A stretch of 32,000 bases of DNA from Halalkalibacterium halodurans. GTDB taxonomy: Bacteria > Bacillota > Bacilli > Bacillales > Bacillaceae_D. The translations under genes and the position numbers were made by a program. Under the pieces are notes generated by a model, which did no database searches, was not told where the DNA came from, and saw only the letters and a list, made by a program, of their open reading frames with translations. The stretch lies in NCBI RefSeq assembly GCF_004376175.1, contig NZ_SNUY01000004.1:1-32000 (forward strand), in the 5' to 3' direction. Shown here piece after piece: positions 493-23,117 of this stretch. How positions within the stretch are numbered: the stretch's first letter is position 1; each line of letters starts with the position of its first letter.

Positions 493-1336
493 AAAACATT
501 GGAGGTACGTGAGGTTTATCAACAATAGGTGTATTGTGTATATACGGTGGAGCTGGACGCAGACGGGGAATACGGCCAAATGCTCCTGGCTCAGCGACAT
601 ACGTAAATTCAGACAAGCTGTCCATGCTCGGACCGCTCGCCCACCTTCCTGTACTACTTTCATGCCCTTCTGATAAATTGAAAAACGTATGCGCTACTTC
701 TTGCTTTTCGAGGTGAGTTGGGAACGTGCTCGGTACGACGATATTCTCCTTTTCCTCAAGCTCACATATGGCTGCATACCATTGATTTTGATGCATGCGA
801 TCCCTCGCGATTAAGAACGATAGCATATCTCGAACTCCAGGATCTGTCGTCATTTCATACAAACGAACCGCCTGCAACCGTCCTTGCGATTCTGCCGTCA
901 AATTCATTCGAAAATCGGCTAATAAATTCCCGCTCGCAATAATATAATCAGCCGTCCATCGGTTGCCTACACTATCGGCTGGCATCGCACCGAGACCTGA
1001 TACGATCGCATGCTGGGGATTCATTCCTCCTAGGACAGCACCAATAACTGGGTTTTTTGCTGCTGCTTCTTGATCTCCTACAGGAGCCCCATCCAATAAA
1101 CGAGCGATCATCGTCGCAAGCATTTCCACATGAGCTAGTTCTTCTGTTCCCGTATCCATTAATAAATCTCGATACTTCCCATCCCCTCTCGTGTTCCACC
1201 CTTGAAACAAGTATTGCAAGGCGACGGAAATTTCACCGAATTGTCCACCGAGAATTTCTTGAAGCTTTTTAGCATAGACCGGATCAGGTCTTTCTGGCTT
1301 CGCATGATACTGCAAATGCTTCACATGATAAAACAC
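491..1336 (-). CDS. Manganese catalase family protein (YdbD/CotJC-like)
   Basis: 281-aa ORF with a GTG start and SD GGGAGG 7 nt upstream. N-terminus MFYHVKHLQYHAKPERPDPVYAKKLQEILGGQFGEISVALQYLFQGW...EELAHVEMLATMIARLL is typical of dimanganese catalases. Confidence 0.9.
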   Translation of the reverse strand: MFYHVKHLQYHAKPERPDPVYAKKLQEILGGQFGEISVALQYLFQGWNTRGDGKYRDLLMDTGTEELAHVEMLATMIARLLDGAPVGDQEAAAKNPVIGAVLGGMNPQHAIVSGLGAMPADSVGNRWTADYIIASGNLLADFRMNLTAESQGRLQAVRLYEMTTDPGVRDMLSFLIARDRMHQNQWYAAICELEEKENIVVPSTFPTHLEKQEVAHTFFNLSEGHESSTGRWASGPSMDSLSEFTYVAEPGAFGRIPRLRPAPPYIHNTPIVDKPHVPPMF

Positions 1337-1500
1337 GTTACCGCCTCCCAGTTATCATCTTTACCTTTCAGCCTATTCCTTCCCAGCCCGTCTTTATGTC
1401 AATTTTCGTCTATTTTTCTCTCGGCTAATTCATTTCCCCATACAGAAAAGCTCGAATGCACATAACGTAAAGAGACACTGTAATGGAGGAGGGAATGTAA

Positions 1501-1710
1501 ATGGATTTAAAACCCATGCTAGAAGTTGTCGTTGATCGGGTGTTAAAAAAACACGGAGTCACAGTACAAAATGTTCAGATCGACGAGCAGGAAAAAGCGA
1601 AAATTCGCCAGCTTTTGAAACAAGTCGAGTCTGATGTTGAAACCTTTTTGGCCAACCAACAAAAACGAATAAATAAAACAAACGATAACGACCAAGCTCC
1701 AGAAAAATAA
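1501..1710 (+). CDS. Small hypothetical protein (69 aa, predicted helical, charged), immediately upstream of the CotX-family gene
   Basis: ATG preceded by GGAGGAGGGAA. No overlapping better ORF. No family recognised. Confidence 0.5.
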   Translation: MDLKPMLEVVVDRVLKKHGVTVQNVQIDEQEKAKIRQLLKQVESDVETFLANQQKRINKTNDNDQAPEK

Positions 1711-1811
1711 GCAAAACAGCTAAAATTCAACGAAATCATCATGACAGTTTGTCCAAACGATTTTCCATTTCGTTCATACATTATCGTAGAAGGAAGAAAG
1801 GGGGAATAACA

Positions 1812-2294
1812 TTGGGTAGAAGAAAGCATTACGATTTGCGGCCAGTCGGGCAAGATAAAGTTGCAAACGGCTGGTGTGCTCTCGATCCAAAAGCGAAACA
1901 TCCATTATGCGATGGCCCAACTAATGACTTTACTCAAGAAGCAACTCAACAAAATAAAATGTTTCAGCTTAGCGATGAGTTGATCGTGATTAAAGATTCC
2001 TGTGACGTAAATGTCACAACTACTGATACCAAAGCAGCGGTAAACCTTCAAGCAGCATTACAAGCCGCACTCGTAATACTCATCTCGCTTGCGGTTGGTG
2101 ATTCGCCACAAACAGAGACCATTGCTCAAGAATTGCTACAAACTTCTCGTACAAAACAACTTTCATTCCAAAAAGTAATTGTTGGGAACTCTCGTAATGT
2201 TGATGTACAGACAACTGACACTCAAGCGGTGATTAACATTCAAATTTTATTACAACTGTTAATTGTGCTTGCGATTCGATTAGATATTTTATAA
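1812..2294 (+). CDS. Spore coat protein, CotX/CotV (Coat_X) family
   Basis: The motif D(S/R)x(D/N)V(N/D)VxTTDT(K/Q)A..N(L/I)Q..LQ occurs twice, and the C-terminus is LAIRLDIL, as in Bacillus CotX/CotV. I prefer the TTG start at 1812 (SD AAAGGGGG at 1797-1804, 7-nt spacing) over the longer track ORF starting at 1749. Confidence 0.7.
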   Translation: MGRRKHYDLRPVGQDKVANGWCALDPKAKHPLCDGPTNDFTQEATQQNKMFQLSDELIVIKDSCDVNVTTTDTKAAVNLQAALQAALVILISLAVGDSPQTETIAQELLQTSRTKQLSFQKVIVGNSRNVDVQTTDTQAVINIQILLQLLIVLAIRLDIL

Positions 2295-2298
2295 GTGA

Positions 2299-2336
2299 AA
2301 AACAGGCGGATCTTAATGGATTCGCCTGTTTTTTCA
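2299..2336 (+). terminator. Rho-independent terminator after the CotX-family gene
   Basis: AACAGGCGGATC..GGATTCGCCTGTT stem followed by TTTTT. Confidence 0.8.
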
Positions 2337-2472
2337 ATGATTAAAGAACGCGGATATCAAATGATGAATAATTTCGGGCACGTTTTTTGAAAGGCAGCTT
2401 TCTTATACATATTGCCTGAGGATTGCGGCATGTTAACAAACATACATATTTCCTTTGAAAGGAGACTTTCCT

Positions 2473-3252
2473 ATGGCGAATAAACACCATGTATATTGGT
2501 ATCGTCACCATATCGTGAACATCATCATGATTGTTGACTCCAAGACTTCCGATTGGATTCTCATCGATACAGGTCTGTTTTACTCAGAGGCCTTTATTTT
2601 AAAAAAGATTCGTCGTGTTTTGGGAGAGCTTATTCCCCCAAAAGCCATTATTCTGACCCATGGCCATTTTGACCACGTTGGGGCTCTTCGTCCATTGCTA
2701 CAGCGCTTTCCTAATGTTCCTGTTTATGCCCACGAACTTGAGCTCCCTTTCCTTACCGGACAAAGACACTACGTGAAACCTGACCCGTCCGTTCCCGGAG
2801 GGCTGATGGCAAAGCTCGCCTGGCTATATCCATATCATGCCTATGACTTTTCTCGCATTATTTGCCCGCTACCGGATGATGGTACACTGCCATTCTTTAC
2901 GGATTGGCGATGGATCCATACACCAGGTCATACAGAAGGACACGTTTCCCTCTTTCGCCCCAGCGATCGATTTCTCATCGCTGGAGATGCGTTTACGACC
3001 GTTAAACAAGAGTCTCTCCTTTCCGTTTTGGCCCAGAAAAAAGAAATTCACGGTCCGCCTGCTTACTTCACACCTGACTGGGAGTTAGCAAAAACGTCAG
3101 TGGAGACCCTTCAGAAGCTCGAGCCTGCCTTTGCTGTGACCGGACATGGACAAATGATGGAAGGAAGCTCTTTGCATTCTGGGTTAAAACGGTTAATCAG
3201 CCAGTTTGAACAAGTGGCCGTTCCAGACCATGGAAGATATGTTCCTGAATAG
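2473..3252 (+). CDS. MBL-fold metallo-hydrolase
   Basis: Contains the HGHFDHVGA (HxHxDH) motif, with later HTPGHTEGH and GD motifs. ATG at 2473 has SD GAAAGGAG 8 nt upstream. The track's TTG at 2455 lies inside that SD. Confidence 0.85.
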   Translation: MANKHHVYWYRHHIVNIIMIVDSKTSDWILIDTGLFYSEAFILKKIRRVLGELIPPKAIILTHGHFDHVGALRPLLQRFPNVPVYAHELELPFLTGQRHYVKPDPSVPGGLMAKLAWLYPYHAYDFSRIICPLPDDGTLPFFTDWRWIHTPGHTEGHVSLFRPSDRFLIAGDAFTTVKQESLLSVLAQKKEIHGPPAYFTPDWELAKTSVETLQKLEPAFAVTGHGQMMEGSSLHSGLKRLISQFEQVAVPDHGRYVPE

Positions 3253-3257
3253 TTTAC

Positions 3258-4130
3258 TTACTCTTTTGCTTTCTTTTGCAAAAAAGAGAATACCACTCGA
3301 TCAATTGTTTGAGTTCCTGTGCCCATCCGCCCTTCTAAATTCTCAGTGGCAATAAATTGCTGGAGGGCATCTCGCCAATGCTGAGTTAACGACAGGTAGC
3401 CCAATGAATGAAGGGATGATTTAATAATAGAAATCCGATCGTCAGTTAATGGTAATTGATCTTGTTCTTTAGGCTTGGCGAAATAAAGCTGCTGCAATTC
3501 AAATATTCTTTTCAGCTCTTGTATCGGCTCAGGATGATCGTCTACGCGTAAATCAATCAATCGGTCATTAAACCCACAATAGCCTCCTTTTTCCTTCACA
3601 ATGAGGAGCGCAGCCGACTGTTTTCCTCGTCGATCCCCTCCTGCGCACTGCCCTGCCTCCAATGTAAGAAGGAGGCGTTCCGCCAGCGATCCAGTCGTCT
3701 GAACAAACTTCTGGGCCATTGTTTTCACGGTCTCCTCGCTCACGAGGAGATTCCCTTGCACCGCAAAACAGGGGCCTGTCATACTTCCAGCCCATTCGTA
3801 GCATCCTTGACCTGTAAAACTCGCCGCTCGTCCTTTTGCATCAACGATTCCAACTTGCCTAAGATGTCGATCTGCATCTTCATTGATTAACAGTGCCAAC
3901 GTTTCCTCAGCCGTTTTACCACGGGCTAAAAAATCAAGCCCTTTAGATCCATAGCTCGTATTTGCATAGGATTGAGTGGCAATAGCCCCTACGCCTGCCT
4001 TCGCCCAAGGCACGATGGCACCTACGCCTAAAAACTTCGATTGTACGGCTATCCCCAGTTCATCCGATTTAGGGTCATAGCCGACAATGGAAAAAGTAGA
4101 TACAGACTGTTCCTTTCTACTCGTGTTCAC
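3258..4130 (-). CDS. DUF1028 family protein (Ntn-hydrolase-like)
   Basis: N-terminus ..TFSIVGYDPKSDELGIAVQSKFLGVGAIVPWAKAGVGAIATQS is typical of DUF1028. GTG start with SD GGAGGGA. It lies 22 nt downstream of the aminotransferase gene on the same strand. Confidence 0.7.
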   Translation of the reverse strand: MNTSRKEQSVSTFSIVGYDPKSDELGIAVQSKFLGVGAIVPWAKAGVGAIATQSYANTSYGSKGLDFLARGKTAEETLALLINEDADRHLRQVGIVDAKGRAASFTGQGCYEWAGSMTGPCFAVQGNLLVSEETVKTMAQKFVQTTGSLAERLLLTLEAGQCAGGDRRGKQSAALLIVKEKGGYCGFNDRLIDLRVDDHPEPIQELKRIFELQQLYFAKPKEQDQLPLTDDRISIIKSSLHSLGYLSLTQHWRDALQQFIATENLEGRMGTGTQTIDRVVFSFLQKKAKE

Positions 4131-8033: not shown

Positions 8034-9032
8034 TTAATACATATAAAAACCAATCGCTTCTCGCACCTCTTGAATCGTTTGCTGTGCTGACACTTTCGCT
8101 TTCTCTTTGCCCATTAATAACAAATCGTGGATATCTGCATCAGTCAATTGCTCGTAGGTTTGGCGAATAGGTGCTACTGTCCGTTCAATGGAGGTTGCAA
8201 GCATTTGTTTACATGCTACACAACCGATTTCGGCTGTTTGGCATCCTGTTTGAATGGATTGCTGCTCCTCTGGCTCTGAGAAGTATTCATGAAGATGGAA
8301 CACGTTGCAGCCCGTTCTCGTCGGATGACCAGGTTTTACTTTATGGGTACGAAGCGGATCTGAATAAGCCCGTTTTACTTTTTGCTCGATCACCTCTTTT
8401 GGATCTTTAAGGGAAATCGTCGTCCCTTTCCCATCAGACTTGCTCATTTTCCCTTCACCTGTTAGTGATGGGACTCGGGCGCTTTGGTTTTCTACAGGTT
8501 TTGGTTCTGGAAATAACGGACCATAGTGAGCCGAAAATCGCCGAACAATCGCACGTGCCATTTCTAAATGAACGAGTTGATCCTCTCCTACAGAGACGAG
8601 CTCTCCTTTATGAATCAAAATATCGGCAGCCATAAGGACTGGGTACCCCGAGAGACCATAATGGACGTGATCAGGGTGTTTTTTCGCTTTTTCCTTAAAT
8701 GTGGGACAACGGAGAAGTTCTCCTAACGGCATGACCATCCCTAAGTAGGTGGCTAACTCTGTTATTTCTGCGGCAATAACCGATTGAGTGTAAAAAGTCG
8801 CCTTATGAGGATCGAGTCCAGCAGCTACCTATAACTTGGCTGCATCAATCGTTCGTTTCGCTAAGGATGTTTCATCAGAATGAGTCGTGAGTGAATGAAT
8901 ATCAACAATAAAAAAATGAGCATCCGTTGTTTCTTGTAAATCGATGATGTCGCGCATCGCACCAATGTAATTACCGATATGCACATCTCCTGTTGGTCTA
9001 ATTCCTGATGTAAGGATAGGTTTGCTAATCAT
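8034..9032 (-). pseudogene. trpS: Tryptophan--tRNA ligase paralog with one in-frame TAG (8829-8831); carries a C-terminal four-Cys motif
   Basis: Track ORFs 8829-9032 and 8034-8738 are in the same frame, and 8739-8828 is open. The joined protein has HIGN (DVHIGNYIGA), KMSKS and GEDQ..HLE motifs and is collinear with Bacillus TrpS. The stop falls where TrpS has a Tyr (..AALYLAVGLDP vs ..DAAKL*VAAGLDP). Confidence 0.8.
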
Positions 9033-9164: not shown

Positions 9165-9420
9165 AAAAAAGCTCCCCCATCCTTAGAAAAGGACGGGAGA
9201 GCCCGCGGTACCACCTTCATTGGTCAATAAATAACCCTGCTTCCTTGTCATCACAACTCGAGAACAAGTGTCTCATGTAACGACGAGACCTATCGCCAAA
9301 GCCTACTAAGGATCCATTCCCGTTCGGTTTGGATGCTCCGAAGCCCATTCTGCATCGTTTCTGTACTGATTTCCACCGACCATCAGCTCTCTAGAACAGG
9401 ATACGATTCATACTCTTCTT
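9165..9420 (-). promoter_or_regulatory. T-box leader (tRNA-Trp responsive) with terminator/antiterminator, upstream of trpS
   Basis: On the minus strand the T-box sequence AATGAAGGTGGTACCGCG (rc of 9204-9221) runs into the terminator GGGCTCTCCCGTCC..GGATGGGGGAGC followed by TTTTTT (rc of 9165-9203). Upstream lie an AGAGAG motif, a GGTGGAA distal-loop motif and two GAAUGG candidate specifiers (UGG at 9345-9347 and 9314-9316). Confidence 0.8.
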
Positions 9421-9498
9421 CATCATTGCAAACATATGCATTCTCGAACTACCTTCATTCTATACTGGGGACCTCGTCAAAGCAATCGTTTTTTCCTT

Positions 9499-16505: not shown

Positions 16506-17348
16506 TTACGCATTTTTCTTCGTTTTGGCGTTTGTTCGCTTGCGTGGCGTTTTCTTTGCCCCTGCTTTTTTTGTTTTATCGATCGACGCTTGGAGCGCCT
16601 CCATCAAGTCGGTTACATTAGAAGCTGCTGGTTCTTTCTCCTTCGCTGTTACTGTCTGTTTTCCTGCCTTTTTGTTTTCAATCATTTCCATCAGTGCTTG
16701 TCGGTAGTCATCCTCATACTTATCAGGGTCAAACGTTGTCGTCAGTTGATCAATAAGCAAAAGGGCTGTATCGACTTCCTTTTTCGTTACGTCTACCTTC
16801 TCAGGTACATTCGGCACTTGATCTACGGCTCTCACTTCATCGGGAAAATGGATCGTTTCCATAAGAAGCGTATTTTTGTATACACGAATAACAGCCAGAT
16901 GCTCTTTGGCACGAATGATGATTTTTGCAACACCGATTTTTTCCGACTCCGCTAGGGCTTCTCGTAATAACGTATAGGCTTTGCCCCCGCCATCTCCTGG
17001 AGACATGTAATAGCTCTTATCAAAGTAGATCGGGTCTATTTCCTGTAGTTTGACAAAGTCAATGATTTCTACCGCCTTATCTTCCTGCTCTTTTTTTAAA
17101 GAGGCAAGCTCCTCCTCATCAAGCTCAACGAACTTATTTTTCGCGTATTCATAAGCTTTCACAATATCATTTGGCTCCACTTCAGCATCACAGTTGGGGC
17201 AAACCTTTAAATAATTAATCGGGGTCTTACATTCTTTGTGAAGCTGTCTTAAACGAACATCTTTATTTTCTGTTGCAGCATGCAATTTGATGGGGATATT
17301 CACAAGGCCAAAACTGATCGTTCCCTTCCACATCGTGTGAATCGTCAT
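16506..17348 (-). CDS. ku: Non-homologous end joining protein Ku
   Basis: MTIHTMWKGTISFGLVNIPIKLHAATENKDVRLRQLHKEC.. is collinear with B. subtilis YkoV, including the basic C-terminal tail. The start is set at ATG 17348. The 28-codon extension in the track ORF has no homology support. Confidence 0.9.
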   Translation of the reverse strand: MTIHTMWKGTISFGLVNIPIKLHAATENKDVRLRQLHKECKTPINYLKVCPNCDAEVEPNDIVKAYEYAKNKFVELDEEELASLKKEQEDKAVEIIDFVKLQEIDPIYFDKSYYMSPGDGGGKAYTLLREALAESEKIGVAKIIIRAKEHLAVIRVYKNTLLMETIHFPDEVRAVDQVPNVPEKVDVTKKEVDTALLLIDQLTTTFDPDKYEDDYRQALMEMIENKKAGKQTVTAKEKEPAASNVTDLMEALQASIDKTKKAGAKKTPRKRTNAKTKKNA

Positions 17349-17452
17349 CACCTTCTTTCCTTCTTCCCTAGCCTTCATAATGTGTGATGAAACCGGATTG
17401 ATTATGTAACGGAAGTTTTTCTGAAACAGCATGTATCGGCCTCATTAAAAAA

Positions 17453-17460
17453 TAAAAAAC
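17453..17460. repeat. Target-site duplication, left copy (TAAAAAAC)
   Basis: Identical 8-mer to 21251-21258. It abuts the outer end of the left terminal IR. Confidence 0.85.
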
Positions 17461-17484
17461 GGGTATTCGGATTTCATGGTGGAA
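17461..17484. repeat. Terminal inverted repeat of the ISL3-family element (end adjacent to the transposase stop)
   Basis: GGGTATTCGGATTTCATGGTGGAA compared with the rc of 21227-21250, GGGTCTTCGGAATATATAGTGGAA, is identical at 19 of 24 positions. It ends 6 nt before the tnp stop codon at 17491-17493. Confidence 0.8.
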
Positions 17485-17490
17485 AAGGGC

Positions 17491-18822
17491 TTATAAATCA
17501 CCCTTCTCCAAATTCTTAATAAGTGTGGAAAAATCGACACCAAAGTTGTCTGTAATGTCGTGATCATTCACTTCATACCAATTGAAAGTATCGTATAACA
17601 TAGCTTTATTGAAAGCACTTGAATTAAATCGTGGCTTACGCTTTTTATGGAGCTTCTCATTGAAAAGGATTTTGGCTCGTAAGGCATCAAACGAGTAACC
17701 TCTACCCATTCGCTCTACCTGCCTAATAATGCTGTTAATTGACTCCGTATAAGCATTAGTGAGCCTTTTATCAAAGTAGTTGAATATTTCGACATGCCAG
17801 TTGTCTACGGCTCTCACGAGGTCTTTATATGCGTCTTTAGAGTTGCTGGACATACAACGGTGTCTCCATTGACTATAACGAAGATGACCTTCATCTGGAT
17901 CAGGAGTATCCCATATCCAGTAAAACTCTTCTTTGAGTTCATAGGCTTCTTTTAAAGCAGGAAGATTACCTAACCAAGTATCTAAGAGGAATGATTCACG
18001 TTCATTTAGATCGTGTTTACGCTTTAGAAGGATAAACCTTTCACGCATAAGGGTACGTCTTTCTTTTTGGCTCATATGGGCTTTCAAAGACTTTCTGACG
18101 TTATCTAAGGCTTGATTAGCCATTCTAACTACATGAAACTTATCTACGACAACTTTAGCGTGTGGAAGGATAGTGTTCACTGCGTCTTTGTAGGGCTTCC
18201 ACATATCCATTGTGACGTACTCAATGTAAGTCCTGTCACTGATTTCTGAAAGACGTTGGATGACTGTTTCCTTGTTACGGTTAGGCTTGATGTCATAAAT
18301 AGTCCTGCGTTCAATATTAGTCAATACAAGCCGAGGTCTACGGATAATATGTATCTCGTCTATCCCAAGCCACTTAGGAGTTTCAAACTGGTATTCACGT
18401 TCTTTGAGTGCCACATAGTCCTTAAAAACGTTCCTAATGGTTTTCTCGTCAACACCAACGCTTTCTGCGACTTCTACAAAGGTCTTAGACATGGATTGCT
18501 CTTGAATGGACTTTAAAAGCCTTTTGGTCATACTACGCTTTTCATCTACAGATATTAGGCGTTCCCAGAAGGTAGATCCGCATTCACGACACTTGTATCG
18601 TCTACGGTTCAATTGTAAGCCCACTCGCTTTAAACGAATGGGCAAATCCATAATTAGTTGATTTCTTGAACTGTGTTTGTACAACTTGTCAAAACCACAT
18701 TCAGGACAACGTTCAGGTGGTCCGACTGCTTCAACTTTAAACATCATATCGGTTTCATTTTCTTGTGGCGGTTCTATTGTTTTAATGTATGGTAGGGATA
18801 ATAAGTCTGACATATTATTCAT
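17491..18822 (-). CDS. ISL3-family DDE transposase
   Basis: 443 aa with an N-terminal zinc-finger pair (CPECG..18 aa..; CRECG) and a DDE_Tnp_ISL3-like body (..LGIDEIHI.., ..VTMDMWKPY.., ..DKFHVVR.., ..TNAYTESINSIIR..). Confidence 0.9.
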   Translation of the reverse strand: MNNMSDLLSLPYIKTIEPPQENETDMMFKVEAVGPPERCPECGFDKLYKHSSRNQLIMDLPIRLKRVGLQLNRRRYKCRECGSTFWERLISVDEKRSMTKRLLKSIQEQSMSKTFVEVAESVGVDEKTIRNVFKDYVALKEREYQFETPKWLGIDEIHIIRRPRLVLTNIERRTIYDIKPNRNKETVIQRLSEISDRTYIEYVTMDMWKPYKDAVNTILPHAKVVVDKFHVVRMANQALDNVRKSLKAHMSQKERRTLMRERFILLKRKHDLNERESFLLDTWLGNLPALKEAYELKEEFYWIWDTPDPDEGHLRYSQWRHRCMSSNSKDAYKDLVRAVDNWHVEIFNYFDKRLTNAYTESINSIIRQVERMGRGYSFDALRAKILFNEKLHKKRKPRFNSSAFNKAMLYDTFNWYEVNDHDITDNFGVDFSTLIKNLEKGDL

Positions 18823-18972
18823 CCTTTATTACTCTGCGGTGTTAAGGTATCAATTATAGATTTGATGTCGAAATCATCAGTGTTAAATTATTTTTGTGAC
18901 CACAAATGCACTTAGAAAATCCCTTAAAGCATTAGCTGGTTCACTTGAATAGGGAGTTGTAAAAAAGTTCCC

Positions 18973-20613
18973 TTAGCCTGCACAACAAGATAATTTCGAA
19001 ATATCTTTATCGAACGTAAGTGCAGCTAATTTTAGCCCTTCAGCCATTGTTAAATATGGTGCTAGGGTTTCTGTTAAATCTTCTATCGTTAAGCCAAATT
19101 TAACAGCTAATGATGCTGCATAGATGACATCTCCTGCATTCTCAGATACAATATGAACCCCTAATACTTTTAGTGTTTCTGCATCTGCTACTAGTTTAAA
19201 TACACCGGTTGTTTCACGGTTTACAATTGCTCTTGGAACAGCATCTAAAGGTAATACAGATGTCTTCACATCATACCCTTTCTCTTTTGCTTGTTCTTCT
19301 GTTAAACCAACCGTTGCAACCGTCGGATTCGTAAACGTAACAGCAGGAACTACCGATAAATCTATTTTTTTGTTTAATCCACCAATAGCATTATCAGTAA
19401 TAATTCCACCTTCATAGGCTGCTACATATACAAATTGTGGTCCTAAAGTCACATCTCCTGCTGCATAAATCTTTTCATTACTTGTTTGACCAAAATCATT
19501 GATCAGGATTTCATTATTTTTTCCAGTTTCAACACCTGCTGCACTTAAATTTAAAGAATCCGTATTTGGTTTTCTTCCAGTGGCAACAAGTAACTGATCT
19601 GATTCAATGACTTCTCTACTGCCATTTACTGTTACGTAAACCCTTTTTATCTCTCCACTTTGTTCAACACGCTCAAAAGTTGCCCCTTTGACAAGGTTTA
19701 TACCCTGTTCAATTAACGCTTTTTCAACTGACTCTGAAATCTCAGGATCATACTCCTTTAAAAGTCGCTCACTTCTTTGCATAAGCGTTATTTCTGAACC
19801 TAAATGATGAAATAGTTGTCCAAGCTCCATTCCAATGTATCCTGAACCAATTACAGTTAATCGTTTTGGTATTTTCTTTAACTCAAGAAGTGTTGTACTA
19901 GTTAAATAGTCCATTTTTTCAAGTCCTGAAATTTGGGGCAACGAAGGCGATGCACCTGTTGCAATTAAAAAGCGTTTTGCAGATAACTTTGCCCCATTGA
20001 CCTCAACCGTACTAGCATCAACGAATTTTGCTTCACCTTTAATTAAATCAAAATTATATTCATCAATTAAATCCATATATTTTTGATTCCGAAGTTCGCT
20101 CACCAATTTATCCTTTTGCGTGATTAAACTAGCTAAATCCACTTCTCCAGCGGATGTTTGTAAACCTATAAACGGATTGTCTTTTGATAAATGATTGATT
20201 TCCCCTGCCCTAAGAAGAGTTTTTGACGGAACACAGCCAATATTCACACAGGTTCCCCCAACCGTTCCACGCTCAATCATTCCAACTTTTGCACCGTATT
20301 CTATAGCTTTAATTGCCGAAGAAAAGGCAGCAGCACCAGAACCAATAATAAGAAGGTCATAATTGTCTTCATTAATTAACGCCACGTTTTCTAGTGATGA
20401 TACTTCTTCAATTTCTCCGGCTTGGTAATTTGCTTCATCAATCGCCTTTATTGCACTTTCAACCTCAATATCATCGGGCAGTTCAAATACTGCTTCACCA
20501 CGACGATAACTAGACTCAATATTTTTAGCACCTATCTTTTCAAGTGCTGATTCTACGTGTTTTTCACAACTCGTACAAGTCATTCCTGAAATGTTTACCT
20601 TAAATTTATTCAT
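18973..20613 (-). CDS. merA: Mercuric reductase with N-terminal HMA (NmerA) domain
   Basis: Shows GMTCTSC metal-binding motif, redox-active [13 protein letters not shown] and the C-terminal vicinal cysteines ..KLSCCAG. At 546 aa it matches Gram-positive MerA. SD AAAGGAG. Confidence 0.95.
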
Positions 20614-20641
20614 AAAAAAGCTCCTTTCGTTAATTAATCTC

Positions 20642-21034
20642 TCATGTTAATGTTTCTATTATTGGACACGAATGTAATTGCTTTTCATCTGGACATCGTT
20701 GTTTTAAGTCGTCTAACATAGTTTCAATTCGTTTTAAATCCTCTATTTGTTTTTGCACTTCCTTTTGTTTTTTAGAAACAAATTCGAACATATCTTGACA
20801 ACGAACTTCATCTTTATCTACAACACCAAGTAATTTATAAATCTCGCTTAAAGAAAAACCAAGTTCCTGTATTCGTTTAATAAACCCAACACGCTTAACG
20901 TCATCATATGAATATATCCGATAACCAGCTTCCGTTCGGTGAGGTTCTTGTAATAAATTTTTTCGCTCGTAATATCTGATCGTTTCTTTATTAACTCCAC
21001 ATTTATCTGCAAACTCACTAATGCGATAAATCAT
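20642..21034 (-). CDS. merR: Hg(II)-responsive MerR-family transcriptional regulator
   Basis: N-terminal HTH ([24 protein letters not shown]) and three Cys at MerR-like spacing (..VRCQD.., ..[13 protein letters not shown]). It lies directly upstream of merA. Confidence 0.9.
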
Positions 21035-21053
21035 CTTATTTCACCCCATGAAT

Positions 21054-21085
21054 ATTATAAACCGTGTACCATAGTACACGGTCAA
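21054..21085 (-). promoter_or_regulatory. mer promoter/operator: long-spacer promoter with a MerR dyad
   Basis: The minus strand reads TTGACC (rc of 21080-21085), a 20-nt spacer, then TATAAT (rc of 21054-21059). The spacer carries the perfect dyad ACCGTGTAC-CATA-GTACACGGT (21061-21082). An over-long 19-20 bp spacer is the hallmark of MerR-activated promoters. Confidence 0.75.
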
Positions 21086-21226
21086 GTGAATTGGACTATT
21101 TTATTTTTTTCCCAAAGTATCACTCGTATGTGATTGATACTTTTATATAATACTATTGATTATCCTAACATCCCACCAGAAAATCCGATTTAAACACCAG
21201 TTGTTTTTAAACTATTAAGAAAGTAA

Positions 21227-21250
21227 TTCCACTATATATTCCGAAGACCC
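21227..21250. repeat. Terminal inverted repeat of the ISL3-family element (end upstream of merR)
   Basis: The reverse complement GGGTCTTCGGAATATATAGTGGAA matches 17461-17484 at 19 of 24 positions. Confidence 0.8.
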
Positions 21251-21258
21251 TAAAAAAC
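21251..21258. repeat. Target-site duplication, right copy (TAAAAAAC)
   Basis: Identical to 17453-17460. It abuts the outer end of the right IR. Confidence 0.85.
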
Positions 21259-21281
21259 TAAAGGTGTGAGGTGACGATTTA

Positions 21282-23117
21282 GTGAAACCAATGCTTTTAC
21301 AGACGACGACCGATTTACCGACAGGCGATAACTGGCGCTATGAAGTGAAGTACGATGGGTTTCGTACGATCCTCTTTTGGACAAAGGAGACGATTCGCCT
21401 TGAGAGCAGAAATGAACGACTTTTGACCGATCAGTTTCCTGAAATACACGATTTTTGCCAACGAATTTCCAATAAAGTGGAAGCCTGGCTCCCTATAACG
21501 ATTGATGGTGAGCTTGTCCATCTTGTTAGCCCGTACCGAGCCCACTTTGCCCCGATTCAGACGCGATCGTTTATGCGTAAGCACGAAACGATTGCAGCTA
21601 GTAGCATTAAGACACCTGCTACTTTATTGGCGTTTGACATCCTTGAACTAAAAGGAAAAACGCTTGTAGACTTACCGTATGATGAACGAAAAAAACAACT
21701 TAAGGCCCTCCTAAAGGCGATCGATGTTCCGTTAGAACCAACGATCCAATCGAATGCGTGCTTGCAAATGATCCCAGCACAAACCGATGGTCAAGCCCTT
21801 TGGCAAGCCGTAGAGCTCCATCACGGGGAAGGAGTCGTCGCTAAGGATAGGTTCTCCGATTGGACAGAAGGAAAACGCACAAATCGCTGGTTAAAAAAGA
21901 AGAATTTTCGACAGGTGACCGTTTTTTTAACGGCCTATGATCCTGTGAACGGCTATTTTCATTTTGCTGTCTATCGGGATGGAACTAGCCTAGAGGTTGG
22001 AAATGTCACCCACGGTTTTGAGGATCACGAACGAGAAACACTCATTGCTTTTATGAAACAAAATGGAATGAAAAAAGGGAAAAGATATGTCCTTGAACCG
22101 TCCGTTTGCTTTGATGTAGATTGCATCGATTTTGATGGGAAACATTTGCGCGAACCGATGTTCCATCGATTCAGACTCGATGTCAAACCTGCACAATGCA
22201 CGTGGAAATCGCTGCAAAGACAGCTAGCCCCGCTGCCTCCACAAGTTGAGATAACTCATCCAGATAAGCCGCTTTGGCCGAGACAAATGATTCAAAAGAT
22301 CGATTATCTTTACTATTTGCAGGAGGTTGCGCCTGCGATGTTACCTTTTTTAAAAGATCGACCATTGACCGTCATCCGTTACCCTCACGGTGTACGAAGC
22401 AACACAGAGCGCGAGGCATTCTATCAAAAGAACTGCCCCGATTATGCCCCGTCGTTTGTTAAAACGGTTCGTTTAGACGAAATCCGTTATATTGTATGCA
22501 ATGATATTCAAACATTAGTTTGGCTCGGAAACCAGCTTGCACTTGAATTTCATATCCCTTATCACCCCGTTCCTTACACAAAGCCGAGTGAGATTGTTTT
22601 TGACTTAGACCCACCATCAATTAGTCAGTTTTCACTTGCTGTTAAGGCGGCTCAACTAATGAAAAACATGTTCGATGCCCTTAAATTACAATCATTTGTG
22701 AAAACATCGGGAGGAAAAGGGTTACAGCTCTACTTGCCACTCCCAGACAACACGTTCACCTATGACGATACTCGATTATTTTCGAAAACGGTTTGCGAGT
22801 TGCTTTGCAGCCAATTCCCTGAAGATTTCACGACCGAACGATTAAAAAAACACCGAGGACAGCGGCTCTATTTAGATTACTTACAGCACGATGAAGGAAA
22901 AACGATCGTCGCCCCCTTTTCTCCCCGAGGCAATGAAGGAGGATTTATCGCGACCCCTTTACGTTGGGAAGAAGTGACTAACACCTTATCTCCCGATCAA
23001 TTTCCGATGAAAGCTGTCCTAGAGCGGTACCGAAACGGCATTCAGCCTTTTGCAACCTTTGCCGAGGCAAAGAAAACTCAGCCTTTTGCCGACGTTTTAA
23101 AAAAATTCAAACGTTAA
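21282..23117 (+). CDS. ligD: ATP-dependent DNA ligase D (ligase plus polymerase/primase domains), NHEJ
   Basis: 611 aa. WRYEVKYDGFR contains the ligase KxDG motif. The C-terminal half (..RYPHGVRS..FYQKN.PDYAP.. LWLGNQLALEFH.. FDLDPP.. YLDYLQHDEGKTIVAPFSPRG) is collinear with B. subtilis YkoU. GTG start with SD GAGGTGA 7 nt upstream. Confidence 0.9.
   Translation: MKPMLLQTTTDLPTGDNWRYEVKYDGFRTILFWTKETIRLESRNERLLTDQFPEIHDFCQRISNKVEAWLPITIDGELVHLVSPYRAHFAPIQTRSFMRKHETIAASSIKTPATLLAFDILELKGKTLVDLPYDERKKQLKALLKAIDVPLEPTIQSNACLQMIPAQTDGQALWQAVELHHGEGVVAKDRFSDWTEGKRTNRWLKKKNFRQVTVFLTAYDPVNGYFHFAVYRDGTSLEVGNVTHGFEDHERETLIAFMKQNGMKKGKRYVLEPSVCFDVDCIDFDGKHLREPMFHRFRLDVKPAQCTWKSLQRQLAPLPPQVEITHPDKPLWPRQMIQKIDYLYYLQEVAPAMLPFLKDRPLTVIRYPHGVRSNTEREAFYQKNCPDYAPSFVKTVRLDEIRYIVCNDIQTLVWLGNQLALEFHIPYHPVPYTKPSEIVFDLDPPSISQFSLAVKAAQLMKNMFDALKLQSFVKTSGGKGLQLYLPLPDNTFTYDDTRLFSKTVCELLCSQFPEDFTTERLKKHRGQRLYLDYLQHDEGKTIVAPFSPRGNEGGFIATPLRWEEVTNTLSPDQFPMKAVLERYRNGIQPFATFAEAKKTQPFADVLKKFKR

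Follow-up and report, generated by a model that had tools for sequence, protein, structure and literature searches.

The 32-kb window (the whole 32,000-nt stretch of DNA analysed here) has three co-directional minus-strand genes, merR, merA and an ISL3-family transposase gene, between the host genes ku and ligD. The transposase gene (17491..18822, minus strand) encodes 443 aa from the first ATG, and its product has the Pfam domains DDE_Tnp_ISL3 (1.1e-70), Zn_ribbon_ISL3 (1.5e-15) and HTH_Tnp_ISL3 (6.6e-09), scoring 292 bits against NCBIfam transpos_ISL3 (cut-off 180). The database annotation gives a transposase of 440 aa with its start at 18813, a form recorded in 14 contigs; in the databases the second ATG is taken as the start, and an exact look-up of the 443-aa form returned 0 contigs. 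The mer genes lie upstream of the transposase gene in the same direction, separated from it by a minus-strand spacer of 150 bp (18823..18972) in which the terminator scan found no terminator-like site.

The gene merA (18973..20613, minus strand) encodes a 546-aa mercury(II) reductase whose N-terminus holds a single metal-binding domain; it has the Pfam domains HMA, Pyr_redox_2 and Pyr_redox_dim and scores 643 bits against NCBIfam TIGR02053 (cut-off 454). Three cysteine motifs were located in it, GMTCTSC (residues 10-16), CVNIGC of the active site (122-127) and the CC of the C-terminus (543-544). The Hg(II)-responsive regulator of 130 aa, merR (20642..21034, minus strand), was assigned to NCBIfam TIGR02051 (193 bits, cut-off 151) and has cysteines 79, 114 and 123, which are the positions known for the MerR of Bacillus RC607. 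The mer promoter/operator was read directly on the minus strand (21054..21085), having the -35 TTGACC at 21085-21080, the -10 TATAAT at 21059-21054 and, inside the overlong 20-bp spacer, a perfect dyad ACCGTGTAC-N4-GTACACGGT at 21082-21061. It is missing from the sigma-70 scan because that scan takes 16-18-nt spacers only, as is expected for a promoter of the MerR type. A helix-turn-helix MerR with three cysteines, a dyad promoter with a 19-20-bp spacer and the MerA motifs are together the features of Gram-positive narrow-spectrum mer determinants.

The three genes are enclosed in a unit of 3790 bp (17461..21250, minus strand), bounded by two 24-nt terminal inverted repeats that both start with GGGT and that were read directly. 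These include GGGTATTCGGATTTCATGGTGGAA at the transposase end (17461..17484, plus strand), only 6 nt from the end of the transposase stop codon, and the repeat at the merR end (21227..21250, minus strand), whose reverse complement is GGGTCTTCGGAATATATAGTGGAA; the two agree at 19/24 positions. Elsewhere in the window, the agreement of a 24-mer with either repeat does not exceed 16/24, a level reached by 0-6 sites per shuffle in the shuffle control (n=20). Both ends are abutted by identical copies of the 8-bp duplication TAAAAAAC (17453..17460 and 21251..21258), which occurs twice on the plus strand of the window, at these two flanks and nowhere else, a particular 8-mer being expected to match at any one fixed place with a probability of ~2e-5. 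A sequence-only reading of this DNA had placed the repeats and the duplication at exactly these positions, with the co-directional merR, long-spacer promoter, merA and transposase between them, and the structure stands as it was described. The G+C is 36.7% in the element and 43.3% in the remaining window, and GC3 comes to 0.20-0.21 in merR and merA, to 0.39 in the transposase gene and to 0.43 in ku and ligD; in base composition the element is foreign to its flanks.

The ISL3 family was judged on a DDE transposase with a zinc ribbon and a helix-turn-helix, on repeats of ~20-40 nt starting with GG and on an 8-bp, usually A/T-rich duplication; the element has the transposase type, the terminal repeats and the 8-bp duplication of this family. 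In the proposed mechanism, the DDE transposase (zinc ribbon, helix-turn-helix, DDE_Tnp_ISL3) would recognise both 24-nt repeats and move everything between them, and a staggered cut in an A/T-rich target followed by repair would give the 8-bp duplication TAAAAAAC.

The element is inserted 23 bp upstream of the start of ligD (21282..23117, plus strand; Pfam LigD_Prim-Pol 2e-75 and DNA_ligase_A_M), and the other flanking host gene is ku (16506..17432, minus strand; Pfam Ku 9e-56). Translation of ku probably begins inside the listed ORF, at residue 28-31 (near 17348): alignments with relatives set in at about residue 26-31, and the ATG at 17348 has a Shine-Dalgarno-like GAAAGAAGGTG in front of it. 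A scan of the genome collection with Ku as the query gave relatives whose nearest Ku proteins have 73-76% identity, and no nucleotide-level empty site; the synteny and spacer length of relatives stand in for it. The two genes are divergent neighbours ~74-290 bp apart in 71/76 of the Bacillaceae relatives measured, with a median spacer of 108 bp among the 76, and no mer or transposase gene was found between ku and ligD in any of those measured. Once the element and one copy of the duplication are subtracted, the spacer of the window comes to ~135 bp.

Two unrelated sites hold the same 3790-bp unit at 100% identity between different 8-bp duplications: TAAATAAA flanks it in Exiguobacterium aurantiacum DSM 6208 and NCTC13163, and AAAAAAAA in metagenome contigs. 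At a third site, two copies of 99.87-99.89% identity have the flanks GTTTAATA. Further copies with different 8-bp flanks, which the sequence-only reading had suggested looking for, exist. Additionally, a variant of 4045 bp has four further duplications, GTTTTTTT, AAAATTAT, GAAAAAAG and TAAAATAC, and one genome holds two copies of this variant at different sites. The recurrence of the same unit at many sites, together with the two copies in one genome, points by comparison to transposition of the element, and the mer genes, as had been claimed, move with it as one unit. Three plasmid copies lack an 8-bp duplication and therefore not every copy marks a simple insertion; later rearrangement is the likely reason for the missing duplication in these three.

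These copies bear on two other explanations of the locus. The repeat-like ends and TAAAAAAC could have been native features of the ku-ligD spacer, as the A/T richness of that spacer, and nothing beyond it, would favor; however, the same ends are found on Enterococcus, Lactococcus and Staphylococcus plasmids and on Exiguobacterium chromosomes far from any ku/ligD, and the spacers of the relatives, which lack mer genes, are too short to hold them. This origin of the ends is refuted, and we give it practically no credence. Alternatively, a transposase-only ISL3 insertion of ~1.5 kb could have landed beside a resident merR-merA pair, with the far repeat and its 8-mer arising by chance and the mer genes not being cargo. 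The GC3 of the transposase gene (0.39) against that of the mer genes (0.20-0.21) does point to separate origins at some past time, but other genera have the whole 3790 bp, together with its mer genes, at 100% identity and between other duplications, the search against the terminal repeats found nothing repeat-like in the merA-transposase interval, and in the relatives the ku-ligD spacer is free of mer genes. The recurrence of the identical whole unit with other duplications refutes this second explanation, which is extremely improbable. The homologous elements share their termini at many sites and have the mer genes inside them. Neither of the two outcomes that the sequence-only reading had named as refuting it, a native origin of the ends or mer genes lying outside different termini, was thus observed. 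The element at 17461-21250 is therefore real and cleanly bounded, and its recent insertion, also proposed earlier, is supported along with the other structural claims.

However, the element is not new, as the sequence-only reading had implied when it could not place an ISL3 unit with a single pair of repeats and merR-merA as cargo. In the 2022 description (Pathogens; PMC9782665), a unit with the Transposon Registry name Tn7546 is reported from Staphylococcus hominis as merR-merA-tnpA(ISL3), with a size of 3775-3791 bp, 8-bp duplications, many Gram-positive hosts and a terminal repeat given as the 11-bp GGGTCTTCGGA, the reference copy being that of S. hominis FDAARGOS_136 (CP014107 1,838,641-1,842,445). 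The element of the window has the same gene content and co-direction, a size of 3790 bp within that range, a terminal repeat that starts as GGGTCTTCGGA, an A/T-rich 8-bp duplication and a place among the Gram-positive/Bacillales hosts. The first 11 nt of its cargo-end repeat are exactly the published repeat and those of its transposase end match it at 10/11 (GGGTATTCGGA); the repeat extends here to 24 nt at 19/24, against the 11 bp given in the paper (PMC9782665). Table 3 of the same source gives GTTTAATA as the duplication for Lysinibacillus sphaericus IAB59 (PMC9782665), the duplication also carried by the copies that are 99.9% identical to that of the window, which is indirect evidence for near-identity to the reference copy.

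It is almost certain that 17461-21250 is an intact copy of Tn7546, recently inserted in the short ku-ligD promoter region of a Bacillaceae-like host, an assignment made by published size, genes, repeat and duplication length. The only differences from Tn7546, and the only new points, are the host and the insertion site; neither the ku-ligD spacer nor TAAAAAAC is in the table of PMC9782665. PMC9782665 was the only literature found in the search for other names of the element. Novelty fails because the unit had been named in 2022 (PMC9782665) and is very common. Beyond annotation the finding matters little: a widespread mercury-resistance transposon, already published, gains a further host and a further insertion site. 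It also serves to illustrate the wide and recent spread of Tn7546, with 100% identity over 3790 bp in a Bacillaceae-like genome, Exiguobacterium and metagenomes.

The spread of the element and its relatives extends to several plasmids. The exact MerR protein was found in ~13,500 blocks of the public collection, and Enterococcus faecium plasmids have copies of ~98-99% identity beside the vanA vancomycin-resistance genes. The copies on Enterococcus faecium and Lactococcus lactis plasmids have ~77 extra bp near the merA-transposase spacer, and in a variant on an Enterococcus faecalis ATCC 29212 plasmid, merR is separated from merA by an inserted merF and merT. In the phage collection, the matches were one short unannotated record with the E. 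faecalis variant and two weak merA matches only. A transposase-less derivative of the element also exists.

Judged by its predicted genes, the cargo is a minimal sensor-plus-reductase pair and not a full operon. The mer module had been called complete, but no ORF for an Hg(II) transporter (merT, merP, merF or merE) was found within the 3790 bp, so the module is not a complete mer system. As proposed here, MerR on its dyad operator would bind Hg(II) at Cys79, Cys114 and Cys123 and switch on merR-merA; MerA would then receive the Hg(II) at the GMTCxxC domain of its N-terminus and the Cys pair of its C-terminus, and its CxxxxC/FAD site would reduce it to volatile Hg(0). Since the element lacks a transporter gene, entry of Hg(II) has to depend on other routes, and this lack may limit mercury resistance.

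A further reading accepts the Tn7546 identity but holds that in this host the unit gives little or no resistance without merT/merP/merF and persists mainly as a selfish insertion sequence. It would agree with the lack of a transporter ORF in the 3790 bp and with the gain of merF and merT by the E. faecalis plasmid variant, which suggests that transport is worth having. On the other hand, all catalytic and metal-binding cysteines are kept in MerR and MerA, selection for the cargo would more readily account for the presence of the exact MerR in so many blocks, and MerA can also work on Hg(II) that has come into the cell with no dedicated transporter. We consider the selfish reading unlikely. In the available text of PMC9782665, no Hg(II) resistance phenotype is reported.

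MerR-controlled merA genes moved as one transposable unit are also a feature of the class II (Tn3-family) transposons Tn501, Tn21 and TnMERI1. These have a Tn3-family transposase and a resolvase, 38-bp repeats, 5-bp duplications, merT and merP and a size of at least 8 kb, none of which is found in Tn7546. Closer in plan are the ISL3 elements ISPpu12 and ISPst2 of Pseudomonas and other Proteobacteria, which have a metal regulator and metal cargo upstream of the ISL3 transposase, one pair of 24-nt repeats and an A/T-rich 8-bp duplication. The existence of passenger-carrying ISL3 members, mentioned in the sequence-only reading, is borne out by ISPpu12, whose cargo is cadR, a cation transporter and lspA; that of ISPst2 is arsR and a permease (PMC6305408), and the ISPst2 IRR as printed there matches the transposase-end repeat at 20/24, compared by eye. 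Both differ from the element in their cargo, in their Gram-negative hosts and in a transposase only 41% identical, and ISPpu12 also in having its regulator divergent from the remaining genes. A nearer relative is an unnamed ISL3 element of 2337 bp on the S. aureus plasmid NZ_CP077883.1 (positions 1282-3618 of locus L113). One of its terminal repeats is identical and the other agrees at 23/24, AAAGTTTA is its 8-bp duplication, and its transposase has 84% identity; the regulator-cargo-transposase layout is the same, but with an ArsR/SmtB regulator and a metallothionein instead of merR and merA. Among these ISL3 relatives the regulator-cargo-transposase plan recurs, the metal cargo being interchangeable.

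A direct copy of the inverted-repeat core, ATCGGATTTTCTGGTGG, was found at a subterminal position (21171..21194, minus strand), 56 nt inside the merR-side repeat. Within the window alone, its match of 16/24 to the repeat is at chance level. However, its offset is conserved in the S. aureus element, which has the same subterminal repeat, and in ISPpu12, which also has a subterminal core copy, the surrounding DNA being unalignable there; with this positional conservation in distant relatives, chance was dropped as the explanation. The core copy is possibly a second transposase-binding site, and could be one peculiar to the cargo-carrying ISL3 clade.

Two further consequences may be considered from the arrangement of the genes. 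Because merA and the transposase gene share a strand, and the 150 bp from the end of merA to the transposase gene hold no terminator-like site, transcription from the MerR-controlled promoter could run on into the transposase gene and raise the transposase with Hg(II); mercury exposure itself could then mobilise the resistance unit. As the insertion leaves ligD only 23 bp of upstream region, it may also change the expression of the end-joining repair genes. This reading, of Hg-induced mobilisation, a clade-specific second binding site and altered expression of the end-joining repair genes, is in our judgment unlikely. Specialists in the ISL3 family would find interest in three points beside the finding itself: a regulator-cargo-transposase plan that recurs with exchangeable metal cargo, the subterminal repeat conserved among relatives, and the transposase-less derivative.

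The element between the host genes ku and ligD (17461-21250, minus strand, 3790 bp) is bounded by two 24-nt terminal inverted repeats, read directly at 17461-17484 (transposase end) and, as the reverse complement, at 21227-21250 (merR end, the cargo side). As described in the sequence-only reading, these are identical at 19 of 24 positions, and the 8-mer TAAAAAAC directly flanks both ends (17453-17460 and 21251-21258). The two flanking sites are the only plus-strand occurrences of TAAAAAAC in the window; a given position would match an 8-mer by chance with a probability of about 2e-5. The similarity of every other 24-mer of the window to either repeat stays at or below 16 of 24 positions, a level at which shuffled windows, used as the control, gave 0-6 sites. 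The G+C content is 36.7% in the element versus 43.3% in the remainder of the window.

The three co-directional minus-strand ORFs within the repeats encode a transposase (443 aa), MerA (546 aa) and MerR (130 aa), the gene content first proposed from the sequence and now confirmed by family profiles; none of the ORFs of the element is a transporter gene. The transposase, whose stop codon lies 6 nt from the inverted repeat, contains three ISL3 domains (Pfam) and scores above the NCBIfam ISL3 equivalog cut-off. MerA is above the TIGR02053 cut-off (643 bits) and retains the GMTCTSC, CVNIGC and C-terminal CC motifs, and MerR is above the TIGR02051 cut-off and retains Cys79, Cys114 and Cys123. In the minus-strand region that precedes merR, TTGACC and TATAAT are separated by a 20-bp spacer that includes a perfect 9-bp dyad; a long spacer enclosing a dyad is a hallmark of MerR-type promoters. 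The third-position G+C (17491-21034) is 0.39 in the transposase gene versus 0.20-0.21 in merR and merA, a difference which suggests separate donors for the transposase and the cargo.

With this anatomy and these family assignments, the transposase would act on both repeats, cutting the target with an 8-bp stagger, Hg(II)-bound MerR would activate merR-merA, and MerA would reduce Hg(II) to Hg(0). A terminator scan found no terminator-like site in the 150-bp merA-transposase spacer; that transcription from the mer promoter continues into the transposase gene is speculative.

One unit has inserted repeatedly at different sites. In 39 plasmid records, mainly of Enterococcus faecium, E. faecalis and Lactococcus lactis, a single place accounts for 80% or more of the 3790 bp, and exact-protein look-ups returned the contig of the window itself (GCA_036219485.1) as well as further copies. 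The Exiguobacterium aurantiacum DSM 6208 and NCTC13163 copy, with flanks TAAATAAA, is 100% identical to the window copy across 3790 bp, as are metagenome copies flanked by AAAAAAAA, while copies flanked by GTTTAATA have 99.87-99.89% identity. Such sequence comparisons indicate that the entire 3790-bp unit is mobile and bear out the earlier proposal that the mer genes move inside one repeat pair. The 8-bp duplication is absent from three plasmid copies, likely due to later rearrangement.

Cargo variants with common ends were also retrieved, having transposases 98-99% and merR 95-100% identical. The 4045-bp form (records L003, L111, L112 and L107) has the same ends as the window element, a 631-aa MerA with ~71% identity to that of the window and the duplications GTTTTTTT, AAAATTAT, GAAAAAAG and TAAAATAC; one genome holds two of these copies. 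The 4475-bp form (L004, E. faecalis ATCC 29212 plasmid) has merF and merT between merR and merA, and the 3864-3867-bp form (L001 and L002), which adjoins vanA genes on E. faecium plasmids, has ~77 additional bp near the merA-transposase spacer. A 2480-bp derivative (L109; GCA_000314795.2, KB373314.1) lacks the transposase gene, while merR-merA, the two terminal repeats and an 8-bp duplication (CTAATTTT) are all present, reflecting either movement in trans or deletion of the transposase gene after insertion.

The finding is real and its interpretation right, but the element is already known. The sequence-only reading implied novelty for an ISL3 unit with merR-merA cargo; the description of Tn7546 (PMC9782665) reports such a unit, made up of merR, merA and the gene for an ISL3 transposase. 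It measures 3789 bp in Staphylococcus hominis, against 3775-3791 bp elsewhere; its terminal repeat is GGGTCTTCGGA and its duplications are 8 bp long. Its hosts there include Staphylococcus, Lysinibacillus, Salinicoccus, Rothia, Granulicatella, Haemophilus and several streptococci. Compared by this published description, the window element has every listed feature, and the duplication given for Lysinibacillus sphaericus IAB59 (PMC9782665) is GTTTAATA, as in the recovered 99.87-99.89% copies. In a full-text literature search, this description alone named the element, with no second paper found. Nothing beyond the host and the site of insertion, which lies 23 bp upstream of ligD, is new.

Whether the element ends are native to the ku-ligD spacer was examined in 76 relatives, in which ku and ligD are divergent and separated by a median of 108 bp (5th-95th percentile 86-286 bp); none of the 76 has a mer or transposase gene in this spacer. 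The window spacer is 135 bp after subtracting the element and one repeat copy. The best Ku match in the genome collection, which holds no close relative of the source species, is 73-76% identical. The insertion splits the divergent promoter region (17349-17460 / 21259-21281), leaving ~112 bp to the ku side and only 23 bp to ligD, and has probably moved the native ligD promoter 3.8 kb away. Homologues of the ku ORF (16506-17432) align from residue 26-31, with a ribosome-binding site ahead of the ATG at 17348, and the listed ORF probably begins too far upstream; database calls differ in ku length (278 versus 308 aa).

The layout in which a metal regulator and metal cargo lie upstream of the transposase is shared by three further elements and is thus a known theme that recurs within this ISL3 clade. 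ISPpu12, whose family has transposases 41% identical to that of the window, carries cadR, a cation transporter and lspA, and ISPst2 is described with arsR and a permease (PMC6305408). In the 2337-bp Staphylococcus aureus element (plasmid NZ_CP077883.1, record L113, 1282-3618), with an 84% identical transposase, repeats as in Tn7546 and the duplication AAAGTTTA, an ArsR/SmtB regulator and a metallothionein replace merR and merA. The cargo seems exchangeable within fixed ends. About 56 nt inward of the cargo-side terminal repeat (21171-21194, minus strand), the core of the inverted repeat is present again as a subterminal direct copy (ATCGGATT..TGGT.GA). The position of this copy is kept in the S. 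aureus sibling (L113, 1337-1360) and ISPpu12 (L114, ~1517-1540), even though the neighbouring DNA cannot be aligned, and the transposase may use it as a second binding site.

Unrelated to the Tn7546 element, a T-box leader (Rfam RF00230, 126.9 bits versus a gathering score of 93) is present at 9186-9435 on the minus strand, upstream of the minus-strand ORF 8034-8738.
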